Source: a virus
Length of the DNA: 64,000 nucleotides
Virus record (IMG/VR): IMGVR_UViG_3300035490_000323
Coordinates: 1 to 64,000 of that record
Reading direction: 5' to 3' (one strand)
The notes under the pieces are model-generated. The model made no database searches and was not told where the DNA came from. It saw only the letters and a program-made list of their open reading frames with translations. The position numbers and the translations under genes were made by a program. This document shows, piece by piece, positions 10,201-50,399 of the stretch (positions are counted from its first letter, which is position 1; each line of letters opens with the position of its first letter).

Positions 10201-12756
10201 GCACTGGGTGCCTGCTCCGACAAGACCCTTGACCTTGTGGTCAGGTGCCTTGCCTACAAGTACCCCACCAACCTGGTGGAGTGGCTGGAGCACAACAACA
10301 CCGACTACAGCGGGCAGGCCACCGGGTTTATGGAGAGGGGGTTCGGCGACTCCCAGGCCCGCAAGTGGCTCTCCAAGCTCAACCTGAAGATAGACGGGGT
10401 CCTGGGCGATGACGATGACATCATAGACTTTATCGAGTTCGCAAGCCTGGACGACGAGGAGAGCACCCTCCTTAACGCCTGGACAGACGCCACGCAGTCC
10501 GGGACCGAGATAGACATGAATAGGGACTTCGAGCACGCTGCCAACGACCTCCTGGGCACGGAGTTCCCCTGGGGTACCATGCTGAGGAGGAAGGGAAAGT
10601 ACTTCTGGGACGACCCCATCTATGAGTTCATGCCCCTGGCCAAGGCTATCGAGGTAGCAGACAGCGGCGAGGACAGCGCCAGCAGCTACATGGAGGCCAA
10701 CGGCAGGGACGACAGCGAGGAGTTCAGGCTGAAGGTTGACGAGCCCTACTACGGATACAACGGCTGGGACGAGTCTGCCGCCGACGAGCGGATAAGCGAG
10801 GGGTTCAGCTTCAAGGAGGAGCCCGAGCCCGAGCCTCCCAAGAAGGCCAGGAGGCCCAGGAAGCCCAGGGCCCCCAAGCCAAAGAAAGTGATGTCGGCGC
10901 TCGGCGACATCGCAGGGAAGTCGGCGCTCGGCGGCATGAAGCTGGCCTACGACTACATGGAGATGTTCCGTGGGCTGCTCCAGGACTTCCCGGGCCGCAA
11001 GGAGACGATAGACGGGGAGATAGCCTGGTGCAAGCGGGTCCTCAAGAAGAGGGACCGCATCACCTGGTGGCTGAGATGGTTCAGGCTCTTCGAGTACCAT
11101 GGCATACGCCACAACCCCATGTACTACTGGAGCAAGTACTCCACCACCGAGGTAGAGGAGCAGCTCCCGCAGAACATCACCCCCGCTATCCGAGAGAGGC
11201 TGGCCGCCCTTTCCAGGAAGTACGACAAGGCCTACACGGACGAGATGCACAGGCTGGGCTGGACCGACTTCCGGGGGGGGCACTACCCCGACTCCACCAG
11301 GCATACGGTAGAGCACTACCTGTCCCTGCCCGTCCCGGAGATACAGGGCCTCGTCTGGGAGAGGCAGCAGCCCTACGAGCTGTTCATGCTCCTGATGGGC
11401 CTGGAGGAGAAGTGGAAGGAGAGGACCAAGGGGGTGGTCGCCCCCCACGAGGGGGACAAGCCGGTCCTGACCTTCGGCGGCGGGTGGGCATGGTGGCTGC
11501 TGGACAGAGGATACTGCGAGGACGAGGCAAGGGCCATGGGGCACTGCGGCAATGTCGCCGGGCAGTACGATGACGACCAGCGCATCCTCAGCCTGCGCCA
11601 GTCGGTGAGGAGGGGCAGCGAGGAGTTCTACGAGCCGCACCTCACCTTCATCCTGCATACCGGGGACAACTCCCTGGGGGAGATGAAGGGGAAGGGCAAT
11701 GCCAAGCCCACGGCAAGGTACCACCCCTACATCGTCAAGCTCCTGGAGAGCGGCCTTGTCGATAGGGTAAGGGGCGGAGGCTACCTTCCCGAGCACAACT
11801 TCAGCATGACGGACCTCCCGCAGGCGGAGCAGGACAGGCTGGTGGCCCTGAAGCCCTCCCTTATGTCCTTCGCCTACCGCCTGGGCAAGGAGGGGATTAC
11901 CAAGGGGCTGCTCTCCGACCTGTCCAGGGTGCTGTCCCCGATGGAGGAGGGAAAGCCCTATCCCGTCAAGGACTGGTACATGCCCAAGCGCCGTGGCTTT
12001 CTCATCAACTCCTACACGCTCAAGGAGTTCACAGAGGAGTTCGGGGACGAGGAAAGCCAGGATGCGGCCGATGTCCTGGAGGGCCGTACCGCGATATCCA
12101 CCGGCATCGGGGGAGGGGAGGGGTACTGGGCGGGGTGGGGGGGCACAGGGGGAGTGGACCCCCTTGAGGACACCCTGTCGGCCATAGGCATGACGACCCT
12201 TATGATGGCGGAGAAGTACTACAGGGGGCTCTCCAAGGAGCTGCTGCCGGACACCCACCTTGTCTGCACCTATGACCAGGCCCGGCGCACGTCCACGGGG
12301 CCGGTGGCCGGAATCCTCAGCTTCATATCCCAGAACAGGCTCCTGGCGGAGTCCAACAGCATCACCGAGGCATGGAAGAGGGGCAGGAACGCCGGGATAA
12401 AGGCCAGCATGCTCAAGGAGCTTGACAGTGCCCTGGACTCCATCCTGGACCGCCGCCTGGAGGACGGCACCATCTTCTACCGCCTCGACCCCGCAAGGTG
12501 GAACTCCGACATCGAGCACATCCTGCCCCTGGAGGAGGCCGTGGCGATAGCCGACCAGGGGCAGACCTTCGAGGATTTCTTCGAGGGGTGGGACCAGAGC
12601 GTCTGGACCCCCGTCATAGAGTTCGAGGTCCCCCCGCAGGGGTGGCCGGGGTGGGACGCCCAGGCGGCAGAGCTTGCCCTGAGGGAGCATTACTCCTCCG
12701 GGCAGGAGGAAGAAGGCAAGAAGCCTAAGCCTAGGGGGAGGAGGAAGGCCAGGTAA
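7288..12756 (+). CDS. 1822-aa protein with three tandem YDYMEMF/PcfJ-like modules, each followed by a variable region
   Basis: Three copies of YDYMEMFRG...DRITW...EAxAMGHCGN...EMKGxGN...YHPYI...GGYLPExNF. Confidence 0.8.
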   Translation: MEKLSYDYMEMFRGILSDFPGQLEHLRREVKWAKTLRKQDRITWFLRWLRIAVYDGIALTLHGDSDPARRELSSKYARLMAAEMQRIGWSDRDMLYISLHSAKDSIVHFLGIPSPAIQNLVWGRQTPAQLLGSFEEAENDWKGADSDRALAPHEDDQVALRFPNGWAWWLLGRGYCPEEAKAMGHCGNVAGRDLPGQRILSLRRPVKGPGGREAWEPHLTFILHIAHKALGEMKGRGNEKPAARYHPYIAALLESPVVEEIWGGGYLPENNFSMADLPRDVQEGLVQKKPALMTFRMRLAKEGAQGPSEELVRDITWKLSMGADDWSPRLRAFRIGTWKSAIDFAGQFGTEETRQVIQLALDGEGIPTSSDMGEDEYVLEALRALSPDNLKRVVDYTRWTDPKALEWWAKNRGNPDTPEGIAQMIGRMDLPNIRTNLYSCWYRGMKNGTVFQLLHACCNEIEKLNPVTPASTELAWGDPSPRAVQTYTRSPDRLLLATPLWETVPLEFAAAVADDEEKDPREMPYRYEEWSGLELKAPPDGWGDFSKRTVNEEARFFFHTGDGIPEQLASLDIAKVAYDYMEMFRGFLADFPRFQPTVTNTISWCKRVLRKRDRITWWLRQMRLFWYNLVADKASAWRYAPATNWPATEVPADNTAMIALADKYQALFDREVRSLGPLGLADRSNYLDLGMFANSNQSTMEHLLSLPVPEIQNLVWERQTKQELFRTLLNYETKWKEESKGVLRPRPGDRPVITFGDGWAWWLLDRGYCEEEARAMGHCGNVNGQNRPYERILSLRKSVRRGGTEYYEPHLTFILDTRDSSLGEMKGKGNNKPAPQYHPYILRLLESDIVSKVKGGGYLPEHNFRLGDLSEEQREELAQRKPSMAAFYIRLKREGPSPALIADIGSALQVGGWDPDLQGYVIRQWENMSSLAEDIGNDTAKWIAKVVGGGEFNRHDSPDFEYGDRSEAMKMALGACSDKTLDLVVRCLAYKYPTNLVEWLEHNNTDYSGQATGFMERGFGDSQARKWLSKLNLKIDGVLGDDDDIIDFIEFASLDDEESTLLNAWTDATQSGTEIDMNRDFEHAANDLLGTEFPWGTMLRRKGKYFWDDPIYEFMPLAKAIEVADSGEDSASSYMEANGRDDSEEFRLKVDEPYYGYNGWDESAADERISEGFSFKEEPEPEPPKKARRPRKPRAPKPKKVMSALGDIAGKSALGGMKLAYDYMEMFRGLLQDFPGRKETIDGEIAWCKRVLKKRDRITWWLRWFRLFEYHGIRHNPMYYWSKYSTTEVEEQLPQNITPAIRERLAALSRKYDKAYTDEMHRLGWTDFRGGHYPDSTRHTVEHYLSLPVPEIQGLVWERQQPYELFMLLMGLEEKWKERTKGVVAPHEGDKPVLTFGGGWAWWLLDRGYCEDEARAMGHCGNVAGQYDDDQRILSLRQSVRRGSEEFYEPHLTFILHTGDNSLGEMKGKGNAKPTARYHPYIVKLLESGLVDRVRGGGYLPEHNFSMTDLPQAEQDRLVALKPSLMSFAYRLGKEGITKGLLSDLSRVLSPMEEGKPYPVKDWYMPKRRGFLINSYTLKEFTEEFGDEESQDAADVLEGRTAISTGIGGGEGYWAGWGGTGGVDPLEDTLSAIGMTTLMMAEKYYRGLSKELLPDTHLVCTYDQARRTSTGPVAGILSFISQNRLLAESNSITEAWKRGRNAGIKASMLKELDSALDSILDRRLEDGTIFYRLDPARWNSDIEHILPLEEAVAIADQGQTFEDFFEGWDQSVWTPVIEFEVPPQGWPGWDAQAAELALREHYSSGQEEEGKKPKPRGRRKAR

Positions 12757-15700
12757 TGGCACAGGACCTAACAGCCATCAGCACGCCCGGCACGACCACC
12801 CAGGGCCCCGCGTTCAAGGCATGGTTCCGGAACTCCGTGGTGAGGAACCCGGACGGCAGCCCGAGGCCTGTCTACCATGGAAGCACGCACAGCTTCGAGG
12901 CCTTCAGCCTGAAGCCCGGCAACCCCGAGAACTGGTACGGCAAGGCGCTCTACTTCACCGACAGCCCCGAGGACGTGGGGAGGAACTACGCCACCCCCGA
13001 CTCGCCGGACCTCAGGGCCCGCATCGACAAGCGCACCGAGCAGCTCATGGACAGGCTGGTGGACGAGCTGGAGCAGGAGCTTGGCGAGGCGCTGAACTGG
13101 AACGACCCCCGCAAGGATAGGCTCTTCCAGGACGCCAAGTCCCAGGCCACCAAGGAGCTTATGGGCCCTGGTGCCATATCCTACAAGCTGTACCTGCGCA
13201 TCGAGCGGCCGGTAGTTATCAGGCAGGGCGGCGGCACCTACTTCGAGATAGACTACAACGAGAGGACCGGGAGGGAGACCGGCTCGGGCATGCGCCTGTA
13301 CAGGGCGGTGATGAAGGCGGCAGGGCAGCTCAACCTCCCGAACAGCGACGAGATATGGCGGCAGTCGGTATCGGCAGACGAGGGGATGACGGAGGGCTTT
13401 ACCGCCCAGCAGTTCGACGAGAACCTCCGCCACTCCGATGCCATGATGGAGGCACGGGACTGGGACGCCACCAACGAGGGCGAGTTCCTCTCCCTTGTCT
13501 ACCGCCTGGCCGGATACGACGGCATCATCATGGAGGACGCCGGGGCCACCTTCCACAACATGGGCATCCCCCCCGGCACCAGGCACTATATCATCTGGAA
13601 CCCCCGCCAGGCCAAGTCCGCCATTGGCAACACGGGCACGTGGAGCACCCGCACCCCCAGGCTGACGGCAGGCTGGGAGGAGGACGAGGGGGACTACGGG
13701 GTAGAGGACTACCCCCAGTGCCTCGGGGACTACGAGTTCAGGACGACATGCGTGTCCGAGGGCACCGGGGAGCACATCCAGGAGATGCTGGACAATGCCA
13801 AGGACTGCGGCTACAGCGAGGTAAAGAGGCACTGCGAGGGGCTGAGGCCGTGGGAGAAGGAGAACGGCTACGCCCCGGACGGCAGCCGTAAGGGGCTTAC
13901 CCTGCGGCACGACTGGGCCGTGAGGTACGGCAGGGGCACCTACAGGAGGATGCCCTGCTACTTTGTCGTGTGGAGCGGCATCGAGCATGTCTGGACGAGG
14001 AAGGGTGCCGGGGGGCAGGAAGGCTGGGAGGACTGGGCAGGGCGGACGTCAAGCAAGGGTGCTGGGAAGTCTGCCGGGAAGCCAGGCAAGGCAGGCCTCC
14101 TGTACCACGGCACCACGAAGGCCAACCTCCCGTCCATCATGTCCGAGGGTCTCAAGCCCACGGTGGGGCGCTATGCCGAGCTATGGCATGGCAGGGACCA
14201 TAACGACACGAGCAAGTCCAACAACCTGGCCCCCGTGGTGTTTGCCGCCCCCAGGGAGCACCTCGACGACTGCCTGCTGGCCATCTTCGCTGCCCTCAGC
14301 AAGGACTTCCCCAGGACCTCCACGGAGCAGTTCTTCGACAATGCCGTCCTCCTGGAGCTTCCCGCCGACCAGTTCACAAGGAACAGGTGGAAGCGCCCGC
14401 CGAGAAATATGAAGCATGTGGAGTCGAGGGACTACTACAGCACCAGCCCTGTCAGGCCTATCCGGGCGATAACAGGGGAGGAGCTGCGGGGGTTCGCAGG
14501 GTATGCCTACCAGAGCGCCCGCCAGGAGTGGTTCGGGGCATACGACCCGGAGAGCCCTGGGCGCAGGCTCGCGGCGGGGAAGGAATGGCCCCCCTGGATT
14601 GGGGTGGACCTGGACGGCACGCTCGCCGAGGAGCAGAGCCCGTTCGACCCGCTGACCATCGGCAGGCCAGTCCCGGAGATGGTGAGGAAGGTCAGGCAGG
14701 CATTGGAGGACGGCGTGGAGGTACGGGTCTTCACCGCCCGGCTTGCAGACAAGGGGCTCAGGGACAGGATTAAGCAGGCCATCAGGGACTATACCAGGGA
14801 GCACGTCGGCAGGGAGCTGGACAGCACCAACGAGAAGGACCCTGGCCTCAGGGAGATATGGGACGACAAGGCCAGGAGGGTGAGGAAGGACGAGGGCACC
14901 TTCGCCCTGCGGGGCACCGAGCGCCAGCCCTCCCGGGCCGACAGGTACCTGCGCGAGATGTGGAGCCCCGGCGACGGCGCTTGGTTCGAGTACCACTGCT
15001 GGGAAGACCCCAAGTCCTGCGATGCCAACCTGTGGTACCATTCGCACCAGAGGGTCACCGTGCTCGGCAAGGCGGACGCGGACGGCTGGCACAAGGGCTG
15101 GGATGGCAGCATGATGAAGGACCGTGCGGAGGCGGGTGCCCCGAGGGCGTATACGGTGAGATTCCAGGACGGGTACGAACGCACCGCCGGGGAAGACGAG
15201 CTGATGACCAGCCGGAGGGGATTCTACCGCCCCGACCCGCCAAGGCCGCCCAAGGCGTTCGCCCTGCGGGGGAGCATTATCGTCGAGGAGCCCCTCTACC
15301 ACGTCACCTTCAGGAAGAACCTGAGGAGAATCCTCAGGGAGGGGCTCCGTGGCGACCAGGAGCCTAACTGGCCCTTCGACTCGTCCCCCGGCAACGTGTA
15401 CCTGATGACCAGGGACGGGCTGGACTTCTGGATGGACAGGTACGAGGACCTGCTCCGCGAGATGGGGAGCAGGTCAAAGCTGGTGGTTCTGGAGGTATCC
15501 CCCAAGGGGCTTATGTTCCAGGAGGATATACAGGGCACCGAGGACTCGGGGACAGAGGCATACCGTACCGGCTTCGTCCCTCCGGGGAACATACATGCCA
15601 ACTGGCGGAGGACTGCCTCGCTTGGCAAGGCGGCCTTCAGGAGGCGTGCCCCCCTCTACCATGTGACCTTCTCGAAGAGCGTCCCGGCCATCCTGCGGGA

Positions 15701-15977
15701 TGGCCTGGTGCCGAAGACATACCCCAAGCTCCCCCCCAGCCAGTGGGAGAAAGGGGTATACCTTACCAGCAAGGAGGGCATACCGTTCTGGGAGAACATC
15801 CTGCGGGATGACATGAAGTGGGGGGGGTTCCACGACCAGCTCTCCGTCCTGGAGGTCTCGCCTGAGGGGCTGGAGCTGGAGTACGACCGGCAGGGGACAG
15901 GGGACTCTGGCGCGAAGGCGTACATTACCCCAAGGGTCCCGCCAGAGAATATCTCCGTCCTGCGGGGGCCTGTCTAG
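12756..15977 (+). CDS. Polyvalent protein: ART-PolyVal ADP-ribosyltransferase + three Tpt1/KptA-like ART domains + HAD phosphatase + two unknown domains
   Basis: FKAWF...VYHGS...YFT...GYDGII...QAKSAIGN; LYHGTTKANLPSIMSEGL; WIGVDLDGTLA...FTAR...WDD (HAD); LYHVT..IL..GL twice. Confidence 0.75.
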   Translation: MAQDLTAISTPGTTTQGPAFKAWFRNSVVRNPDGSPRPVYHGSTHSFEAFSLKPGNPENWYGKALYFTDSPEDVGRNYATPDSPDLRARIDKRTEQLMDRLVDELEQELGEALNWNDPRKDRLFQDAKSQATKELMGPGAISYKLYLRIERPVVIRQGGGTYFEIDYNERTGRETGSGMRLYRAVMKAAGQLNLPNSDEIWRQSVSADEGMTEGFTAQQFDENLRHSDAMMEARDWDATNEGEFLSLVYRLAGYDGIIMEDAGATFHNMGIPPGTRHYIIWNPRQAKSAIGNTGTWSTRTPRLTAGWEEDEGDYGVEDYPQCLGDYEFRTTCVSEGTGEHIQEMLDNAKDCGYSEVKRHCEGLRPWEKENGYAPDGSRKGLTLRHDWAVRYGRGTYRRMPCYFVVWSGIEHVWTRKGAGGQEGWEDWAGRTSSKGAGKSAGKPGKAGLLYHGTTKANLPSIMSEGLKPTVGRYAELWHGRDHNDTSKSNNLAPVVFAAPREHLDDCLLAIFAALSKDFPRTSTEQFFDNAVLLELPADQFTRNRWKRPPRNMKHVESRDYYSTSPVRPIRAITGEELRGFAGYAYQSARQEWFGAYDPESPGRRLAAGKEWPPWIGVDLDGTLAEEQSPFDPLTIGRPVPEMVRKVRQALEDGVEVRVFTARLADKGLRDRIKQAIRDYTREHVGRELDSTNEKDPGLREIWDDKARRVRKDEGTFALRGTERQPSRADRYLREMWSPGDGAWFEYHCWEDPKSCDANLWYHSHQRVTVLGKADADGWHKGWDGSMMKDRAEAGAPRAYTVRFQDGYERTAGEDELMTSRRGFYRPDPPRPPKAFALRGSIIVEEPLYHVTFRKNLRRILREGLRGDQEPNWPFDSSPGNVYLMTRDGLDFWMDRYEDLLREMGSRSKLVVLEVSPKGLMFQEDIQGTEDSGTEAYRTGFVPPGNIHANWRRTASLGKAAFRRRAPLYHVTFSKSVPAILRDGLVPKTYPKLPPSQWEKGVYLTSKEGIPFWENILRDDMKWGGFHDQLSVLEVSPEGLELEYDRQGTGDSGAKAYITPRVPPENISVLRGPV

Positions 15978-25826: not shown

Positions 25827-27275
25827 TCATCCCCCCTCCCCTGTAGGGGGGCTAGGAAGGATGGGCCGGACGAGCTGGCCAGGGAAGACATACTCCACCC
25901 CTTTCCTCAGCCTCTCCATCGCCTCCAGGGCCTCCTCGCGGGTGGATATCGTGCCCTCTAGCTGCATGTCCTCGATGTCCCCCAGGATTAGCTTGAAGCC
26001 CCTTCCCGGCTCCATCCCCATGGCTATCAGGTCGTCCCCCGTGGCCAGCCTCTCCGGGCGTATCTCCTCGGGGGTCAGCGACATGCAGTAGTCCAGCATC
26101 TCGGTGTACTGCGCTGCCGCGTGGTCCCTGTAGTCCTTGCCCAGCTCCCCCTCCCCGTCCTCCTCGTCCTCCCTGCGCAGGAGGATGTCCTGCCTGGCCA
26201 GGACGACGCCGTTCCTGGCCCCCGGCGTGCGCATCAGCTTCTTGAGGCGGTAGCGGCTGTGGTTCTTGGGGTAGTAGTAGAAGTTCCCGTTGAGGAGCAG
26301 GTCCATGCGCACGTCCAGCGCCCCGCAGATGGCCCTGGCATGCTCCGAGGACAGCTTCAGGACATCCCTGCACAGGTGCTCGCTGTCCGTCTCGCAGGGG
26401 TCGGACCCGGCGAGCAGCATGGCCATCCCTAGGTCCTGGTCCGTGGTGGGGAAGGCTGCCAGCCTGTGCATGGCGTTGGCCAGGGAGGGCTTGACCGCCT
26501 CCCTGAAGGGCAGGTATTCGAGCAGCCCCGATGCCGCCAGGGCGGCCAGCCCGCCCGCAGCATTGGGGGACGCCACGAGCCTGAGCAGCTCCGCCGTGAC
26601 GCGCTCCACCGACACCCTCCTGATAAGGGGGGCGTTCCTCCTGATTGCGCCCAGGGTGCCCTGCTCTATCTGGAACCTGAGCTGGGCAGCGAACCTGCAC
26701 GCCCGCAGCATCCTGAGGGCGTCCTCCATGAACCTCTGCGTCGGGTCGCCGATGCAGCGGACGACCCTGTCCCTGATATCCCTGAGCCCGCCCACATAGT
26801 CCACGACGAGGCTGTCCCCGCCCGGCGCTGGCTGGATGGCAAAGGAGGTGCTCTGCGGCCCGCTGCCTGGGTGCCCCTCCGCCAGGGTCGTGCCGCCGTA
26901 CGAGATAAGCAGCCCGTTCATGGTGAAGTCCCGCCTGGAGACGTCCTGCTCGGCGGTGTCGCTGTAGAAGACAATCTCGGGATGGCGGCCGTCCTCGTAC
27001 CTGCCGTCCGACCTGAAGGTGGCCACCTCGGTGTTCACCCCGCCGATGACCACGGTGACCACGCCGAAGGCCGCCCCGATGGGGACGGTCTTCTCGAAGA
27101 GGCCTATGACCTGCTCCGGGCGGGCATTGGTCGTGACATCGTAGTCCTTGGGCTCCCTGCCCAGGACGAGGTCGCGCACGCACCCGCCGACGAGGTAGGC
27201 CTCGAAGCCTGCCTCGCTGAGCGCCCTGATTACCTGCTCGGCCGCCTGCCTTGCCTCAGTAGCCATAGCCGACAT
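25827..27275 (-). CDS. cca: CCA-adding tRNA nucleotidyltransferase (class II)
   Basis: YLVGGCVRD...DYDV (motif A), EVATFR, RRDFTMN (motif B), EDALRMLRACRF (EDxxR), ERVTAEL; lacks the poly(A) polymerase GRRF signature. Confidence 0.9.
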   Translation of the reverse strand: MSAMATEARQAAEQVIRALSEAGFEAYLVGGCVRDLVLGREPKDYDVTTNARPEQVIGLFEKTVPIGAAFGVVTVVIGGVNTEVATFRSDGRYEDGRHPEIVFYSDTAEQDVSRRDFTMNGLLISYGGTTLAEGHPGSGPQSTSFAIQPAPGGDSLVVDYVGGLRDIRDRVVRCIGDPTQRFMEDALRMLRACRFAAQLRFQIEQGTLGAIRRNAPLIRRVSVERVTAELLRLVASPNAAGGLAALAASGLLEYLPFREAVKPSLANAMHRLAAFPTTDQDLGMAMLLAGSDPCETDSEHLCRDVLKLSSEHARAICGALDVRMDLLLNGNFYYYPKNHSRYRLKKLMRTPGARNGVVLARQDILLRREDEEDGEGELGKDYRDHAAAQYTEMLDYCMSLTPEEIRPERLATGDDLIAMGMEPGRGFKLILGDIEDMQLEGTISTREEALEAMERLRKGVEYVFPGQLVRPILPSPPTGEGG

Positions 27276-38571: not shown

Positions 38572-38587
38572 GCTTAGGATAATACCA

Positions 38588-38899
38588 GCCTGCGGGCCTG
38601 TAAGCCGAATTTTGTGCCCGGCCAGGGCCAGGCGACAGCCATTCGTCTAGGGCGGCCGTTGCCGGACGCCTCAAGCTCGCTACCCGAGGGTCGTGGCGGC
38701 CCGAGCAGGGCCTCCCCTCCTATTTGCGATTGCTCCCCGTAGAGATTGCCCGTTTCACACCGGACCTAACCGGCTCGTCTCTGTTGCTCTAATCGTCACG
38801 CCCGGAGGGCATGCCGGGGCGTTACCCCGTACGGCGCTCTATGGAGTTCGGACTTTCCTCCCCCCCGTTGCCGGGGCGGCGGCTGTCCGGCCCGCAGGC
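38588..38899 (-). ncRNA. rnpB: RNase P RNA (bacterial type A, compact)
   Basis: - strand GAGGAAAGTCC (CR-I), GCAACAGAGA/GTGAAAC (CR-II/III), AGACGAATGG (CR-IV), ACAAAATTCGGCTTA (CR-V); terminal helix GCCTGCGGGCC/GGCCCGCAGGC. Confidence 0.95.
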
Positions 38900-39326: not shown

Positions 39327-39680
39327 TGGTGGAGGCGTCGGGAGTTGAACCCGAGTCCGAAGAGTTCCACGACCAGGAGACTACACGCTTGTCCGGTTCC
39401 TTCTCGCCTTGCTCCAGGCCCCTATGGACTCCGGCAATCACAGGGCCCGTCCGCATGCCTTGTCTCGCCACGGGAGCGGCAAGCATCCCCTGGCCAGCCT
39501 CCCAATCGACGCCTGGCCCCCGCCCGAAAGGCGGAAGCGGGGCAGGCGGCCTAACCCTAAAGGTTAAGCAAACGCATACTGCATGTTGGCAGTTGCTAAT
39601 CCCATCCCTGTTACGGTCGGCATGGGGCCACCGGCGTGCCTCCTAGCTATGGGCGCTCCCGTCGATTCCGATACGCCCCC
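39327..39680 (-). ncRNA. ssrA: tmRNA; tag (A)ANMQYAFA*
   Basis: 5' GGGGGCGTATCGGAATCGAC; 3' GGGTTCAACTCCCGACGCCTCCACCA with G3:U; resume codon GCC AAC ATG CAG TAT GCG TTT GCT TAA. Confidence 0.95.
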
Positions 39681-39864
39681 GGAGACTGACTACTGCTGCT
39701 GCAAGCTGTAGGGCCGCCTCTAAGCCGCCACATCGCGCTGAGCCATTCTTCCATGGGCCCCTCGACTTTAGGCAGCGTGGTTGAGCAGCGGCCCCACTAC
39801 TACGAGAGGGGACGGGGGCTCGGACCCCGAATGCTTCCCCCCTGCTATATAATACACTGGAAAT

Positions 39865-39957
39865 TGGTCCCGGTGCTGGGAGTCGGACCCAGTCCATTCC
39901 CTAATCTGGGGATTCACGGTTTATAAGACCGCTCGTTCGGCCGCAAACTTCACCGGG
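39865..39957 (-). tRNA. tRNA-Ile(UAU) with long variable arm
   Basis: CCCGGTG/CACCGGG-A-CCA; loop CT-TAT-AA; 23-nt variable region. Confidence 0.8.
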
Positions 39958-39963
39958 AAGGAA

Positions 39964-40040
39964 TGGCAGCGTAGACCGGGCTTGAACCGGCTATTGCCCT
40001 GGTTGAAGGCCAGGGGACTCGACTCTTCGTCTTCTACGCC
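39964..40040 (-). tRNA. tRNA-Glu(UUC)
   Basis: Cloverleaf, loop CC-TTC-AA, encoded CCA. Confidence 0.85.
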
Positions 40041-40203
40041 AAAAATTTAAGGCCGGATGGCATCCACGTTTGGGCCCATGCAGGCATGGCAAGGGCTGGC
40101 ACCGGCCTCGGTTTGCCAGCTCCCACTACGTGGCCCGGTTAAGACCGCCGTCCCGATGCGACCACCAATCAGACCTGCGGTCAAGGTATATGGTGGCCTC
40201 GCT

Positions 40204-40278
40204 TGGAGGCGCAGGGGAGAATCGAACTCCCGCTTAAAGGTTTTGCAGACCTCTCCCTTCCCACTTGGGTACTGCGCC
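40204..40278 (-). tRNA. tRNA-Cys(GCA)
   Basis: Loop CT-GCA-AA, U73, CCA. Confidence 0.95.
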
Positions 40279-40284
40279 GAATCC

Positions 40285-40359
40285 TGGAGGCCCGAGAGGG
40301 AATCGAACCCTCGCGTAGCGGTTTTGCAGACCGCCGCCTTGCCACTTGGCTACCGGGCC
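40285..40359 (-). tRNA. tRNA-Cys(GCA), second copy
   Basis: Loop CT-GCA-AA, U73, CCA. Confidence 0.95.
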
Positions 40360-40664
40360 AATACCTTCCTGGACCCGCCCTGCTCCCGCTCGAAGCCGTG
40401 CTCCCAGAGCCGGTGCGAGTCCTCCCCGAGCATCTCGGGGGTATAGTCGTTGTCGAAGAACCAGCGGACCAGGTGCGTCCTCGGGTACCGCTTGAACAGC
40501 TCCTCGAAGCACTCGAAGGTCAGGCGGTCCAGGAACTCCTCCGGCACGTAGCAGTGCTCCTTGTCCCAGGCCTTCCCAATCTCCTTCGTCCACCAGTCCC
40601 AGTTGAGCTTCCCGCGCAGGTACCGCATGAGAAGCTCGGGCTCCCGGCAGCCCTCCTCGGGCAT
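40350..40664 (-). CDS. Hypothetical protein inside the tRNA array (5' part may be frameshifted)
   Basis: 104-aa ORF with coding-like codon usage; frame stays open upstream to about 40840 without a start codon. Confidence 0.5.
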   Translation of the reverse strand: MPEEGCREPELLMRYLRGKLNWDWWTKEIGKAWDKEHCYVPEEFLDRLTFECFEELFKRYPRTHLVRWFFDNDYTPEMLGEDSHRLWEHGFEREQGGSRKVLAR

Positions 40665-40853
40665 CCTCCCGTGGGTCTCGCAGCTAAAGCAGCACTCGCC
40701 GCCGCTGAGCCCGCCCTCCCTTAGCGGGGGAGGGGTCGTGTTGGTCCGGTCCCACTGCTGGCCTGTCCATGGGGTGGAGCACCTGCTCCACCTTAGGTAG
40801 CTTCCAGCAGTTCTAGGTACCTCTTGGTCAGCCTCATACGGGCCTCACGGGCT

Positions 40854-40929
40854 TGGTAGGGTAGGCGGGAATCGAACCCGCAATCTCCTGGTTGAGGGCC
40901 AGGTGACTTAACCGTTCGTCTACTACCCC
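40854..40929 (-). tRNA. tRNA-Glu(CUC)
   Basis: Loop CC-CTC-AA, CCA. Confidence 0.9.
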
Positions 40930-40936
40930 GGAAACT

Positions 40937-41013
40937 TGGTAGCGTCGGTGGGATTTGAACCCACGGTTTGAGCCTTGAGGGGGCCCCGTCCTAGGCCGCT
41001 AGACGACGACGCC
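40937..41013 (-). tRNA. tRNA-Glu(CUC), second copy
   Basis: Loop CC-CTC-AA, CCA. Confidence 0.9.
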
Positions 41014-41194
41014 ACAATCCCTGCGGCAATGGGCAGCGGCCTCGCATCGGGAAGGCACCTTCCGGTGGACCAGTATGGCGTAGCCGCATGGCGGCATCCC
41101 GTTCCCTTCGCCTGCAAGTCCTTCGCATCCGCTGCCAGCTTGCAGCCTCCGCAGAGCTTGGTGGCCTCGGGGGTTTCCCCCTCCGGCCGCAGCT

Positions 41195-41270
41195 TGGTGG
41201 AACCGGTGGGAGTTGAACCCACAACCCCTAGACTGCCAGCCTAGTGCTCTCCCAGTTGAGCTACGGTCCC
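41195..41270 (-). tRNA. tRNA-Ala(GGC)
   Basis: G3:U70, loop CT-GGC-AG, CCA. Confidence 0.95.
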
Positions 41271-41405
41271 GAATTTCGCCCCAGGGGGACTTGAACCCCT
41301 CTCCCACGGTCGCCTGCAAGCTCGCATGGTTGCCCCCCCGCTAGCGCCTGCTCGGCACAGGGAGGAGGTTGCAGCCCCCTCCCCAGCCTCGGGGGCTGAG
41401 GAACT

Positions 41406-41480
41406 TGGTGCGTCCTACAGGAGTCGAACCTGTCGCTCCTTCTGTGTCAGAGAAGGCGTCTACCGCTGGCATAAGGACGC
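41406..41480 (-). tRNA. tRNA-Val(GAC)
   Basis: Loop CT-GAC-AC, CCA. Confidence 0.9.
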
Positions 41481-41486
41481 TGAACT

Positions 41487-41564
41487 TGGCGGGTACGACG
41501 AGATTTGAACTCGCGGTCTCCTCCGTGACAGGGAGGCGAGCACTCCGGGCTGCTCCACGTACCC
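41487..41564 (-). tRNA. tRNA-Asp(GUC)
   Basis: Loop CT-GTC-AC, G73, CCA. Confidence 0.95.
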
Positions 41565-41571
41565 GTGAACT

Positions 41572-41645
41572 TGGCGGTCCTAGCGAGACTCGAACTCGCT
41601 TTTCATCCGTGACAGGGATGCGTAATACCCATATACCATAGAACC
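41572..41645 (-). tRNA. tRNA-Asp(GUC), second copy
   Basis: Loop CT-GTC-AC, G73, CCA. Confidence 0.9.
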
Positions 41646-41808
41646 GAAAAACTAATTGGGGGCCTTCTTGCCCCCCTGCTTTGCCTTGCGGGCACCCTTC
41701 TTATGACCGGCCGGGTAGGGCTTGACCCGCCTCTGGCACATCTCACACCCTGCAACATGGCCATGCCGGTTGGCATGAGCGTTCCCCATCAGGGTCTCCG
41801 ATAAAACT

Positions 41809-41884
41809 TGGTGGAACCGATGGGAGTCGAACCCACAACCTCAGCATTGCGAATGCTGCGCTCTCCCAGTTGAGCTACGGTCCC
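41809..41884 (-). tRNA. tRNA-Ala(CGC)
   Basis: G3:U70, loop TT-CGC-AA, CCA. Confidence 0.95.
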
Positions 41885-41999
41885 GTTCGGGGACTCCGGG
41901 CGGTTACTCCATCGTCCCACAGGTCCAGTCTCTTAGGCCCCGGTCGGGGTAGGCCACCGCAGCCCCCCCTACAGGGGGCCTAGAGGGCTGAACCGTTCT

Positions 42000-42074
42000 T
42001 GGAGCGGGTAGCCGGACTCGGACCGGTCTTCTCTGGCTTGGAGGGCCAGGGCACACCCCTTATACCATACCCGC
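42000..42074 (-). tRNA. tRNA-Gly(UCC)
   Basis: Loop CC-TCC-AA, U73, CCA. Confidence 0.9.
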
Positions 42075-42191
42075 AATCTCTCCAGGATAGCCTTGCCACG
42101 GCCAGAAAGTAGCGGACTGCACGCCGGTTGCTACGCCTGCGCCCAGCCGGTAGCAACTACCCCCTGACCTTCGCAGGGCTACCCTGAAACT

Positions 42192-42265
42192 TGGAGCGGG
42201 CAGCCGGACTCGGACCGGCTTCGCTGGCTTGGGAAGCCAGGGCACAGCCCATATACCATGCCCGC
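42192..42265 (-). tRNA. tRNA-Gly(CCC)
   Basis: Loop TT-CCC-AA, U73, CCA. Confidence 0.9.
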
Positions 42266-42334
42266 AAATACCAATGGGTGCCTATTTGGAAAGTGTGACC
42301 CGCAGGTCAGCCATTAAGTCATGACACCCAATCT

Positions 42335-42413
42335 TGGTGGACCATGTGGGGATTGAACCCACCTGCTATCTGCATTGCAAGTGCAGCGACCACCCCGTGC
42401 AGTCCCATGGCCC
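42335..42413 (-). tRNA. tRNA-Ala(UGC)
   Basis: G3:U70, loop CT-TGC-AA, CCA. Confidence 0.9.
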
Positions 42414-42491
42414 ACGAGGCCATGCCCGATGCCAGGGGCTTTTGCGGCACTAAGCCATTTCGCCTTTGGGCACCAGCATGGTCCCGGAACT

Positions 42492-42568
42492 TGGAGCGGC
42501 TGGAGGGATTCGGACCCTCGACCTCTTCCTTGGCAAGGAAGCATTCTACCGGGCTGAACTACAGCCGC
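42492..42568 (-). tRNA. tRNA-Gly(GCC)
   Basis: Loop TT-GCC-AA, U73, CCA. Confidence 0.95.
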
Positions 42569-42651
42569 TCAAAAACTAATGTGGCAAGCAGGACTCCCAC
42601 CTGCCGTGGCTGTGACCCTCAAGCCTCCCTTTCCATTGCCACAAGCTAGCT

Positions 42652-42727
42652 TGGTGCCCTCGGCAGGGTTCGGACCTGCGCCCTCTCGCGTGTGAAGCGA
42701 GCGCTCTAACCGCTGAGCTACAAGGGC
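42652..42727 (-). tRNA. tRNA-Val(CAC)
   Basis: Loop TT-CAC-AC, CCA. Confidence 0.95.
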
Positions 42728-42733
42728 CAATCT

Positions 42734-42811
42734 TGGTACTCCGGGAGGGACTCGAACCCCCGAGTTGGTTGCTTGTAGGGCAACTGGCTTAGCCGCTCGC
42801 CGCACCGGAGT
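42734..42811 (-). tRNA. tRNA-Val(UAC)
   Basis: Loop CC-TAC-AA, CCA. Confidence 0.85.
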
Positions 42812-42823
42812 AAAACTCTCTGG

Positions 42824-42851
42824 AAACAAAAATGGCACCCTTTCGGGTGCC
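42824..42851 (-). terminator. Intrinsic terminator (attenuator) upstream of the tRNA operon
   Basis: GGCACCC-GAAA-GGGTGCC followed by ATTTTTGTTT on the - strand, 12 nt before the first tRNA. Confidence 0.85.
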
Positions 42852-42873
42852 TCCGGGAGCCAAAAGCTGGGTT

Positions 42874-42969
42874 TTACTGCCCAGCGCCTCCCGAAGGCGA
42901 AGTATCGCCCTCACACCCGGCGGCCACTGCCGCTATGACATCGACTTCCGTTATGTGTAGGGCCAGCAT
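42874..42969 (-). CDS. Leader peptide of the tRNA operon (MLALHITEVDVIAAVAAGCEGDTSPSGGAGQ)
   Basis: ATG after GGAGAG; 31 codons; core codons match the downstream tRNA set; overlaps alternative hairpins. Confidence 0.8.
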   Translation of the reverse strand: MLALHITEVDVIAAVAAGCEGDTSPSGGAGQ

Positions 42970-42983
42970 CTTCGCTCTCTCCA

Positions 42984-42995
42984 CCTATATAATAC
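42984..42995 (-). promoter_or_regulatory. Putative phage promoter core GTATTATATAG driving the leader and tRNA operon
   Basis: The same 11-mer lies upstream of the tmRNA unit (39845-39855); GTATTA recurs before other - strand genes. Confidence 0.55.
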
Positions 42996-43097
42996 CTCCG
43001 GTAGTCAAAGTTCTCAGGATTTTTTTGCAGCGCCTACCTCAGGAGCAGGCCAAGCACAAGGATATAGGCCAGCACCGCCGCCACGAACGCTATCCCC

Positions 43098-49744: not shown

Positions 49745-50399
49745 CGCTTCCCTCTCCTGTCACGCCTGCCTCCTCTGTTTTCTCCGGGCAGGGGGGGGCG
49801 CTTCCCTTAAGGGTTCTCTTAAGGGTTGATTGAAGGTGTTCTATTAAGGGTTTAGGTGGTTTAGGACCACTACCCCAGGGGTTTATAACCCCTACCCCAG
49901 TGGTCCTAAACCACCACCCCAGTGGTCCTAAGCCACTACCTGGGTGGTCCATAACCCCTACGTGGTGGTCTATAGCCCCCACCTCGCCTGCCGCCCAGGC
50001 GGGGTGGGCGAAGAGCAGCGTCCTGCCCGGCACCCTCTGGGTCCAGCCCTCGAACGCCTTGACCCCCTGCCTGTACTCTGCCTGTGCCTCCGGTATGTCC
50101 ACCACTCCCCGCAGGGAGTACCTGTTGCTCCCCTGCCACCCAGGGCGGCTGCTGTTGCACTGCCCCTCCGCCGTGGTCACGAGGTCGAGCGCCCACAGCC
50201 ACCTCATGGCCCTGATGACCGCCTTCCTGTCTATCCCCCCCAGCCTGTCCGCCAGGTCGCGGTAGGACGGCCAGCAGGCGTTCTCCGTGCTGGCCGTCCA
50301 GCACAGCTCCCAGGCCACGGCCCTCAGGGTGCCCAGGTCAACCCCAGGCACGGGGGGCAGCAGGGTGTAGTGCAGGGCGTCTGTGTGTCTGTTGCTCAT
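49722..50399 (-). CDS. Phage replication initiator (winged HTH)
   Basis: CWPSYRDLADRLG...AVIRAMRWL...LV...SNRYSL; internal iterons; adjacent to helicase. Confidence 0.7.
   Translation of the reverse strand: MSNRHTDALHYTLLPPVPGVDLGTLRAVAWELCWTASTENACWPSYRDLADRLGGIDRKAVIRAMRWLWALDLVTTAEGQCNSSRPGWQGSNRYSLRGVVDIPEAQAEYRQGVKAFEGWTQRVPGRTLLFAHPAWAAGEVGAIDHHVGVMDHPGSGLGPLGWWFRTTGVGVINPWGSGPKPPKPLIEHLQSTLKRTLKGSAPPCPEKTEEAGVTGEGSDGGTADA
49856..49985. repeat. Six ~22-bp iterons (GTGGT-N5-ACCAC core), putative replication origin
   Basis: Units start at 49856, 49878, 49900, 49922, 49944, 49965; AT-richer tract at 49805-49853. Confidence 0.7.

Follow-up and report, generated by a model that had tools for sequence, protein, structure and literature searches.

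What does a virus gain from a run of tRNA genes that together read one whole row of the genetic code? The question is raised by a block of tRNA genes on the minus strand of IMG/VR virus record IMGVR_UViG_3300035490_000323 (77,998 bp; labelled G000 here), at positions 39865-42811 of the window, by which we mean the 64,000-nucleotide stretch analysed, positions 1-64,000 of the record, to which all coordinates refer unless another contig is named. The purpose of phage tRNA genes has long been debated, the usual proposals being that they compensate for codon usage, make up for host tRNAs that decay, or help the phage evade defences that cut tRNAs. A first-pass annotation made from the letters alone had proposed that this phage partitions its tRNAs into codon-row operons, each with its own sensor leader and possibly matched to nucleases that recognize anticodon base 36. 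The evidence described below bears this out only in part, and we regard it as probable that the locus is a single transcription unit controlled by a ribosome-mediated attenuator, through which the phage would exert negative feedback on its own tRNA supply.

ARAGORN called 16 co-oriented tRNA genes and Rfam added a 17th, tRNA-Glu (UUC). Fourteen of the 17 cover all 12 anticodons that end in C at position 36 (C36), those for Val, Ala, Gly, Asp and Glu, and the other three are two copies of tRNA-Cys (GCA) and a long-variable-arm tRNA with the anticodon UAU; CCA is encoded by every one of the 17 genes. The set read from the letters was thus confirmed by the two programs, and so was the view that its sorting by the first codon base, G, goes beyond random capture: the probability that 14 distinct anticodons out of 46 include all 12 C36 anticodons is 2.3e-9, and that of finding 14 or more of the 17 genes in a single codon row is 2e-6, or 8e-6 if any of the four rows is allowed. 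Paralogues are clear inside one amino acid (Gly UCC/CCC 88%, Ala CGC/GGC 87% and Cys 80% identity), and similarity between tRNAs for different amino acids is weak (at most 71%). Two origins were considered for the block: that a host operon was captured whole, and that the array expanded as duplicated genes changed their anticodons.

Ahead of the first tRNA gene is a compact leader, the elements of which are listed in Table 1. A promoter-like motif containing GTATTATAT, a sequence that occurs only twice in the window (ahead of the leader and ahead of the transfer-messenger RNA, tmRNA), is followed by a short open reading frame (ORF) with GGAG about 9 nt ahead of its ATG. Of its 30 sense codons, 21 are decoded by tRNAs of the block (P = 7e-4), and for the uninterrupted run of 15 such codons P = 1.5e-5, given how the phage itself uses codons. 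The ORF is succeeded by an intrinsic terminator that ends 12 nt ahead of the first tRNA. Codons near the end of the ORF are predicted to pair with a segment reaching into the terminator (42887-42898 with 42849-42859; dG -25.3 kcal/mol; z = -3.2 vs shuffles), and this pairing and the terminator stem would be mutually exclusive.

Table 1. Features of the tRNA block, its leader and the neighbouring RNA genes, in order along the minus strand (window positions; C33, cytosine at tRNA position 33)
Feature	Position	Strand	Evidence and remarks
Promoter-like motif containing GTATTATAT, upstream of leader	42983..42997	-	Motif scan; promoter function inferred
Leader ORF, 31 codons, MLALHITEVDVIAAVAAGCEGDTSPSGGAGQ then stop	42874..42969	-	21 of 30 sense codons read by tRNAs of the block
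Regulatory run, codons E8 to D22	42904..42948	-	15 consecutive GNN, ATA or TGT codons
Antiterminator 5' strand, codons S24 to G28	42887..42898	-	Predicted pairing with 42849-42859
Inner hairpin, leader stop codon in loop	42866..42885	-	Folding; same arrangement in G001 and G002
Antiterminator 3' strand	42849..42859	-	Overlaps first bases of terminator 5' arm
Intrinsic terminator, 7-bp GC stem (42851-42834) with GAAA loop, then ATTTTTGTTT	42824..42851	-	Folding; dG -15.8 kcal/mol
tRNA-Val (UAC)	42734..42811	-	ARAGORN + Rfam; C33
tRNA-Val (CAC)	42652..42727	-	ARAGORN + Rfam
tRNA-Gly (GCC)	42492..42568	-	ARAGORN + Rfam
tRNA-Ala (UGC)	42335..42413	-	ARAGORN; in Rfam a weak tRNA-Sec-like match only
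tRNA-Gly (CCC)	42192..42265	-	ARAGORN + Rfam
tRNA-Gly (UCC)	42000..42074	-	ARAGORN + Rfam; C33
tRNA-Ala (CGC)	41809..41884	-	ARAGORN + Rfam
tRNA-Asp (GUC) copy a	41572..41645	-	ARAGORN + Rfam
tRNA-Asp (GUC) copy b	41487..41564	-	ARAGORN + Rfam
tRNA-Val (GAC)	41406..41480	-	ARAGORN + Rfam; G001 copy 95% identical
tRNA-Ala (GGC)	41195..41270	-	ARAGORN + Rfam
tRNA-Glu (CUC) copy a	40937..41013	-	ARAGORN + Rfam; C33
tRNA-Glu (CUC) copy b	40854..40929	-	ARAGORN + Rfam; C33
tRNA-Cys (GCA) copy a	40285..40359	-	ARAGORN + Rfam
tRNA-Cys (GCA) copy b	40204..40278	-	ARAGORN + Rfam
tRNA-Glu (UUC)	39964..40040	-	Rfam 33.9 bits (gathering score 29); missed by ARAGORN; C33
Long-variable-arm tRNA, anticodon UAU (AUA reader), 93 nt	39865..39957	-	ARAGORN + Rfam
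Second copy of GTATTATAT promoter-like motif, before tmRNA	39847..39855	-	Motif scan
tmRNA, tag ANMQYAFA	39327..39680	-	ARAGORN; Rfam 116.9 bits
Bacterial type-A RNase P RNA, compact, ~314 nt	38585..38898	-	Rfam 187.7 bits

As we picture it, the unit would consist, in order, of a promoter, the 31-codon leader ORF, an antiterminator/terminator switch and the 17 tRNA genes, whose products would read all GNN codons together with UGY and AUA, and the leader would be spelled in the amino acids that the block serves. The last third of the ORF would form a helix in which the beginning of the terminator's 5' arm is kept sequestered. Ribosomes moving fast through the GNN/Cys/AUA run would melt this helix while the polymerase is making the terminator, leading to termination and leaving the tRNAs off. 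When charged tRNAs are scarce, which would be the physiological trigger, a ribosome would stall in the run, the helix would persist, the terminator would be weakened and the tRNAs would be transcribed. In a ribosome-footprint model, with the RNA truncated just before the terminator's 3' arm, ribosomes placed over codon 21 and over codons 24-28 freed the terminator arm, and ribosomes placed in the regulatory run did not.

Comparison with related giant-phage contigs, in which a marker protein shows 35-50% identity, indicated which parts of this arrangement are retained. Two of the comparisons were with G001, a 114-kb record with a 47% identical CCA-adding enzyme, and G002, a 128-kb contig with a 45% identical marker protein and a GC content of about 50%, against 64% in this phage. 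A search of a "phages" collection with the array DNA gave no match, and exact scans of viral contigs for the UAU-tRNA and Val-UAC patterns returned only G001, G002 and one 10.9-kb contig; the wider relatives (G007-G011; marker identity 35-47%) were reached via protein-alignment search only. G001 has the same G-row set minus Val-CAC, plus tmRNA and RNase P RNA, and G002 has the full GNN set, Cys, the UAU tRNA and tmRNA; the UAU tRNA is kept in both (in G002 recognized by eye). A block of GNN and Cys tRNAs is found again in G007, G009 and G010, and that of G008 comprises Val x3, Gly x3, Asp, Glu x2 and Ile-GAU but lacks Ala and Cys tRNAs. Identity between orthologous tRNAs ranges from 68 to 95%, and their genes stand in a different order; because the orthologues have diverged and the order differs while the set stays, we conclude from these sequence comparisons that the set is maintained by selection, independent of base composition. 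The possibility that it is a mere effect of high GC was considered and rejected, as G002, in which GNN codons make up about 30% of the total, keeps it.

The relatives also carry other tRNA blocks, and these bear directly on the proposal that phage tRNA genes are filed by codon row. Leu/Tyr blocks (Tyr and four Leu in G007; seven Leu and two Tyr in G009) combine rows C and U, a second G007 block (Pro x3, Ser-GCU, Met x2 and Phe) mixes rows C, A and U, and blocks in G002 and G003 (Ile, Thr x3 and Gln x2) mix rows A and C. In each of them the grouping follows the amino acid, with every isoacceptor set complete, yet codon rows are crossed, which is the finding that the first-pass annotation had itself named as fatal to codon-row operons. 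Its expectation that further arrays in the genome would be row-specific and carry matching leaders held in part. This record has one array only, with no other credible tRNA in the remainder of its 77,998 bp, and the other arrays of the relatives are row-mixed but do have matching leaders. In G002 the order is array 2, marker gene, array 1, and by synteny an Ile/Thr/Gln block of this phage may lie beyond the contig end.

A scheme in which the whole tRNA set is sorted into GNN, CNN, ANN and UNN operons, each replacing the victims of a nuclease that reads base 36, would account for the presence of all 12 C36 anticodons in one block and for the five G-row amino acids occurring together in 6 of 7 related G-row blocks. 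It could also draw on the C33 that replaces the near-universal U33 in 5 of the 17 tRNAs (Table 1), an anticodon-loop change of a type reported to defeat anticodon nucleases (PMC10264068). We nevertheless consider this scheme highly improbable. Besides the row-crossing blocks, even the G-row block is impure, since it stably holds Cys (A36) and UAU (U36) tRNAs and in G008 admits Ile-GAU (U36), members that argue against a base-36 rule. C33 is neither tied to a row nor conserved: in G001 it is retained by Val UAC and Gly UCC, whereas the Glu tRNAs carry U33, and G002 has C33 in its UAU tRNA and U33 in Val-UAC. Nothing in the analysis, which looked at neither host tRNAs nor any nuclease, points to a nuclease reading base 36, no candidate having been identified, and known anticodon nucleases hit single tRNA species or small sets rather than a row (PMC10264068, PMC11464382, PMC11555353). 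The other units of the relatives cross codon rows. The grouping most likely marks one self-regulating unit, and the G-row purity most likely belongs to a single inherited regulatory unit and not to genome-wide row sorting.

The leaders of these blocks, on the other hand, follow their contents closely. Short ORFs lie upstream of all seven G-row blocks, six of which also have a terminator, and a hairpin and T run equivalent to the terminator described here was found in G001, G002, G007, G009 and G010. The promoter-like motif is present in 9 of 10 leaders tested, which span four block classes, the tenth having a TATAAT-like box; motifs of the GTATTATAT type head blocks of G001, G002, G003, G009 and G010. 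Leu/Tyr leaders are rich in L and Y, the Pro/Ser/Met/Phe leader is rich in M, P, F and S, and the Ile/Thr/Gln leaders of G002 and G003, which stand behind the same motif and are followed by an inserted ORF, are rich in T, Q and I. When leaders were tabulated against blocks, each of 8 automatically extracted leaders was richest in the amino acids of its own block (P from 7e-6 to 0.018); the G009 Leu/Tyr leader was excluded from this match, as the wrong ORF had been extracted, and the ORF adjoining the terminator was used in the duplex test described below. The correspondence extends to particular codons and exceptions: the G008 leader tracks its block in having no Ala, no Cys and four Ile, and the leaders of G000, G001 and G002, whose blocks have the UAU tRNA, contain ATA codons, which are absent from the leader of G009, where no UAU tRNA was seen. 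The claim that each block has its own sensor leader is therefore upheld insofar as a codon-matched leader ORF accompanies every block tested, in four classes, with sensing as its proposed role.

Pairing into the terminator is predicted for the relatives as well. In 10 leaders of the four block classes, the final third of the ORF is predicted to pair with a stretch that enters the terminator's 5' arm. The duplexes have dG values of -16 to -25 kcal/mol and z scores of -2.8 to -4.8 against mononucleotide shuffles, and the helix sequences differ between phages. According to these predictions, the apparent conservation of the leader peptide towards its C terminus would reflect conservation of the RNA helix.

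In three relatives an additional gene lies between the leader/terminator and the first tRNA. In G007 (L151, 2296-2690) it is an ORF for an HNH-type endonuclease, and in G002 (L127, 4440-5380) and G003 (L128, 4900-5275) it is a conserved ORF that begins MAKFEQHC and is about 150 residues long. A working switch would gate these inserted ORFs in G002, G003 and G007 too. In G001 (L013, 9260-9350) the array is immediately preceded by a gene with a PEP-CTERM-like sorting signal at its end, a kind of signal found in bacteria that have exosortases, Acidobacteria among them.

Several observations weigh against the attenuator. That the leader is translated and that the terminator is regulated are both things we infer. 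Minimum-energy folds of the whole leader with ribosome footprints show no antiterminator, and the terminator hairpin persists in almost every state; the switch is seen only in the truncated RNA and therefore rests on a kinetic, co-transcriptional assumption. In G000 the overlap between the antiterminator and the terminator's 7-bp core stem is just ~3 bp. For the duplex test one partner was set in advance to extend 6 nt into the terminator arm, and the shuffled controls preserve mononucleotide composition only. Given the leader peptide, synonymous codon choice is ordinary (P = 0.40), so that leader and block match in their amino acids and not in synonymous codons. In G008 no T run follows the hairpin of the leader, and after the G007 Pro/Ser/Met/Phe leader no terminator is evident. 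With no ribosome on the leader the model predicts read-through, unlike the trp attenuator. Finally, the attenuator gives no reason for the bundling of Val, Ala, Gly, Asp and Glu; for these five to fall into one 6-member block among 15 amino acids, P is ~0.002 by our own arithmetic.

A simpler explanation would be plain supply, with a constitutive tRNA cluster serving the most-used codons and the upstream ORF and hairpin being an unrelated small gene with its own terminator. GNN, UGY and AUA codons do account for 39.6% of phage codons. Relative to the presumptive acidobacterial hosts, whose usage was estimated from 19 short stretches of metagenome-assembled genomes (MAGs) with a crude gene caller, GGG is used ~3x, GAG ~2x and ATA ~2x as often, and the block supplies Gly-CCC, two Glu-CUC and the UAU tRNA. 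NNA also exceeds NNT in the boxes served by U34 tRNAs of the block (GTA, GCA, GGA, ATA), which is not so in most unserved boxes. However, the GNN share is equal in phage (37%) and hosts (36%), and the set is kept in G002 at its lower GNN share. The most host-discordant codon, AGG, which makes up 55% of Arg codons at 37 per 1000 against ~6 per 1000 in presumptive hosts (6x), is unserved here; no Arg-CCU tRNA is on the contig, and one is probably encoded in an unsampled block. The Cys tRNA is duplicated though Cys is 1.1% of codons. Plain supply also leaves unexplained why leader composition tracks block composition across four classes and ten leaders, and why pairing into the terminator is conserved. 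We therefore think plain supply unlikely as the sole explanation and continue to favour the attenuator.

The bundling of five amino acids likely has a cause beyond chance, which could be history, shared metabolism or independence from position-37 modification. One version adds to leader gating a biochemical reason for G-row purity: tRNAs with C36 and A37 would be the only row without need of a row-specific hypermodification at position 37 (t6A, m1G or i6A) and would work when mass-produced late in infection, or the charging of these five direct transamination products of central keto acids would co-vary. Its premises are textbook tRNA modification and amino-acid biosynthesis. The low probability of the five meeting in one block while the others are row-mixed speaks for such a cause, as does the persistence of the bundle across the full range of marker identities and, where measured, widely differing GC. 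In the same block, though, are Cys (i6A-type) and UAU (t6A-type) tRNAs, the Ile/Thr/Gln block consists largely of t6A-dependent tRNAs, and G008 has lost Ala and gained Ile; in the Caulobacter phage phiCbK the five amino acids are not bundled in the tRNA blocks. We regard this biochemical version as quite improbable. A broader possibility, which we also think rather unlikely as stated in full, is modular tRNA homeostasis in several giant-phage lineages, in which leaders would sample the codons of their own blocks and replace only those decoders that fail through host tRNA decay, starvation or nuclease attack. The G-row block would then be the largest module, and its purity would reflect a biochemical class, either C36/A37 tRNAs without position-37 hypermodification or tRNAs whose charging reports central carbon and nitrogen status.

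The UAU tRNA links the phage to a host phylum. An 18-mer from its anticodon arm matched 20 genome contigs (L020-L039), of which 19 are titled as Acidobacteriota lineages, including Terriglobia, Bryobacterales and Acidobacteriaceae, and one as "bacterium". In 16 of the 20 the match is a stand-alone 82-88-nt long-arm UAU tRNA, and a 17th contig (L035) has a phage-like tmRNA with a 94-nt UAU tRNA. With its long variable arm, UAU anticodon and acidobacterial link, the phage tRNA fits the class of allo-tRNA(UAU) known from Acidobacteria (PMC5389517), from which it differs in lying inside a tRNA operon whose leader has ATA codons. None of the six allo-tRNA(UAU) assayed in E. coli was active (Mukai et al. 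2017, PMC5389517). In this phage ATA accounts for 38% of Ile codons though 87% of third positions are G or C, and it occurs at 15 per 1000 codons vs ~8 per 1000 in the MAG contigs with UAU tRNAs. Because ATA codons in the gene for the phage's ribonucleotide reductase line up with Ile, Val or Leu in 15 homologues, four of the positions being invariant Ile, AUA is, on this alignment, isoleucine in the phage, and reassignment of AUA to Ser by the long-arm tRNA was rejected. The sequence data argue for use of the UAU tRNA in translation.

The remaining gene content of the record is phage-like, including polyvalent proteins with ADP-ribosyltransferase domains, a GP88 domain, ribonucleotide reductase, a DnaB-like helicase, a CCA-adding enzyme, collagen-repeat proteins of a kind seen in tail fibres, and a weak major-head-protein match. 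Related records of 67-142 kb have CheckV completeness values of 21-42%, and because of these values the complete genome is probably about 300 kb and the 77,998-bp record a fragment. A 14.9-kb contig from an independent peat run covers the entire block with 9 differences, and at least half of the sampled words of this stretch are held by 19 DNA runs from ~18 peat, wetland and soil studies. Assembly artefact as the source of the block was ruled out by these near-unchanged independent assemblies from peat, soil and wetland. G000 is probably a giant phage of Acidobacteriota in peat and wetland soils.

Downstream of the block are genes for two further RNAs (Table 1). RNase P RNA was found in G001 too (203 bits, Rfam) and was not found in G002 or G003. 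Besides this RNA the phage has a CCA-adding enzyme, even though CCA is already encoded in all of its tRNA genes, and it also has polyvalent proteins with ADP-ribosyltransferase domains and a Tpt1/KptA-like domain (38585-38898, 25827-27275 and 12756-15977 for the features of this sentence). Together these features suggest an investment in making or repairing structured RNAs. One wetland RNA library contained an exact 398-nt contig over the tmRNA and an exact 263-nt contig at 40929-41191, covering tRNA-Glu(CUC) and its upstream spacer, with the adjoining stretches uncovered; these contigs suggest, but do not prove, natural transcription of a tRNA precursor. No contig covered the leader or most of the tRNAs, from which no inference was drawn.

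Some details of the array itself deserve description. By eye, tRNA-Glu (UUC) has an 8-bp acceptor stem, a 4-bp T stem and a tiny D arm, and this 8/4 layout probably explains why ARAGORN missed it, as it likewise missed the 82% identical G001 copy. The layout is reminiscent of irregular 8/4 tRNAs found by Mukai et al. (PMC5389517) in polycistrons of peat metatranscriptomes. Directly after tRNA-Ala(GGC), at 41159-41188, is a GC-rich minihelix ending in ACCA that resembles an acceptor-stem mimic, and the spacer at 41271-41405 contains a T-arm-like GGTTCAAGTCC element; both could be processing signals or tRNA remnants. Within the array are two short ORFs with coding-like GC3, one of 29 codons at 41660-41750, before tRNA-Asp, which is very basic and has a terminator-like hairpin at its end, and one of 104 codons at 40350-40664, between the Glu and Cys tRNAs; at the equivalent place G001 has different ORFs, namely two small membrane-like ones. 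Elsewhere in the window, ARAGORN calls at 49850-49969 (Ile-tat and Leu-tag) were dismissed as false positives, as they overlap on opposite strands in a hairpin repeat. A GGTGGTTTAGGACCAC-like unit recurs throughout this region in both direct and inverted orientation, perhaps as a regulatory or origin-like repeat.

If the attenuator is real, the leader would show what the phage itself responds to, and the purpose of its tRNA genes would become testable. Leader-peptide attenuation would then extend to tRNA genes and to viruses. The complete G-row set would be the clearest marker of such a unit; as matters stand, it does not show that phage tRNAs are organized by rows of the code.

The nearest precedents are the leader-peptide attenuators of amino-acid operons (ilvGMEDA, thr, his and trp) and of pheST in enterobacteria. 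They share a short ORF rich in the sensed codons, an intrinsic terminator before the genes and an alternative helix, here predicted, that depends on ribosome position and competes with the terminator; in ilv and thr, as would be the case here, several amino acids are sensed per leader. The differences are that the genes controlled here would be tRNA genes and nearby RNA-maturation RNAs instead of enzymes or a synthetase, in a virus, that up to 13 tRNA species would be sampled by one leader, and that only two competing helices are apparent, with no 1:2 anti-antiterminator, so that an untranslated leader would read through. The design of a leader-peptide attenuator for viral tRNA genes would thus be known from amino-acid operons and its target would be new; in a full-text literature search, no paper on leader control of tRNA genes was among the 15 matches listed of 106. 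T-box riboswitches similarly let tRNA state feed back on read-through of translation-related genes, but a T-box binds one uncharged tRNA with no ribosome, whereas here the decoding speed of many tRNAs would act via the ribosome, and Rfam found no T-box here. Counter-defence tRNAs (T5 loop changes, tRNA-Lys against PARIS and tRNA-Tyr against retron effectors) are alike in keeping translation going when host tRNAs are lost and in having unusual anticodon loops. They differ in involving one or a few species per known nuclease (PMC10264068, PMC11464382, PMC11555353), not a whole row, and the loop changes seen here are not conserved between relatives.

Among the tRNA clusters of large phages (T4, T5, Tunturi_5 and phiCbK), many co-oriented tRNAs with isoacceptors often adjacent are likewise the rule. 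The Tunturiibacter phage Tunturi_5, a cultured jumbo phage from the same host phylum, has at least 39 tRNAs and a CCA enzyme (Rfam matched 38 over the whole record, and ARAGORN called 39 within the 40.6 kb examined), but its blocks are row-mixed, with at most 6 C36 tRNAs in any 17 consecutive. The blocks of phiCbK are also mixed by codon row. In this phage, gp083 (JX100813, 49540-49769; L159, 2541-2770) is a 45-residue ORF rich in S, L, P and K that is followed by an annotated terminator, and the two directly precede tRNAs for Pro, Pro, Lys, Lys, Leu x3 and Ser x2. Leader control of this kind would account for short "hypothetical" ORFs and terminators ahead of tRNA clusters, of which gp083 is an example, and from its sequence the gp083 region looks like the same architecture in a cultured and tractable phage.

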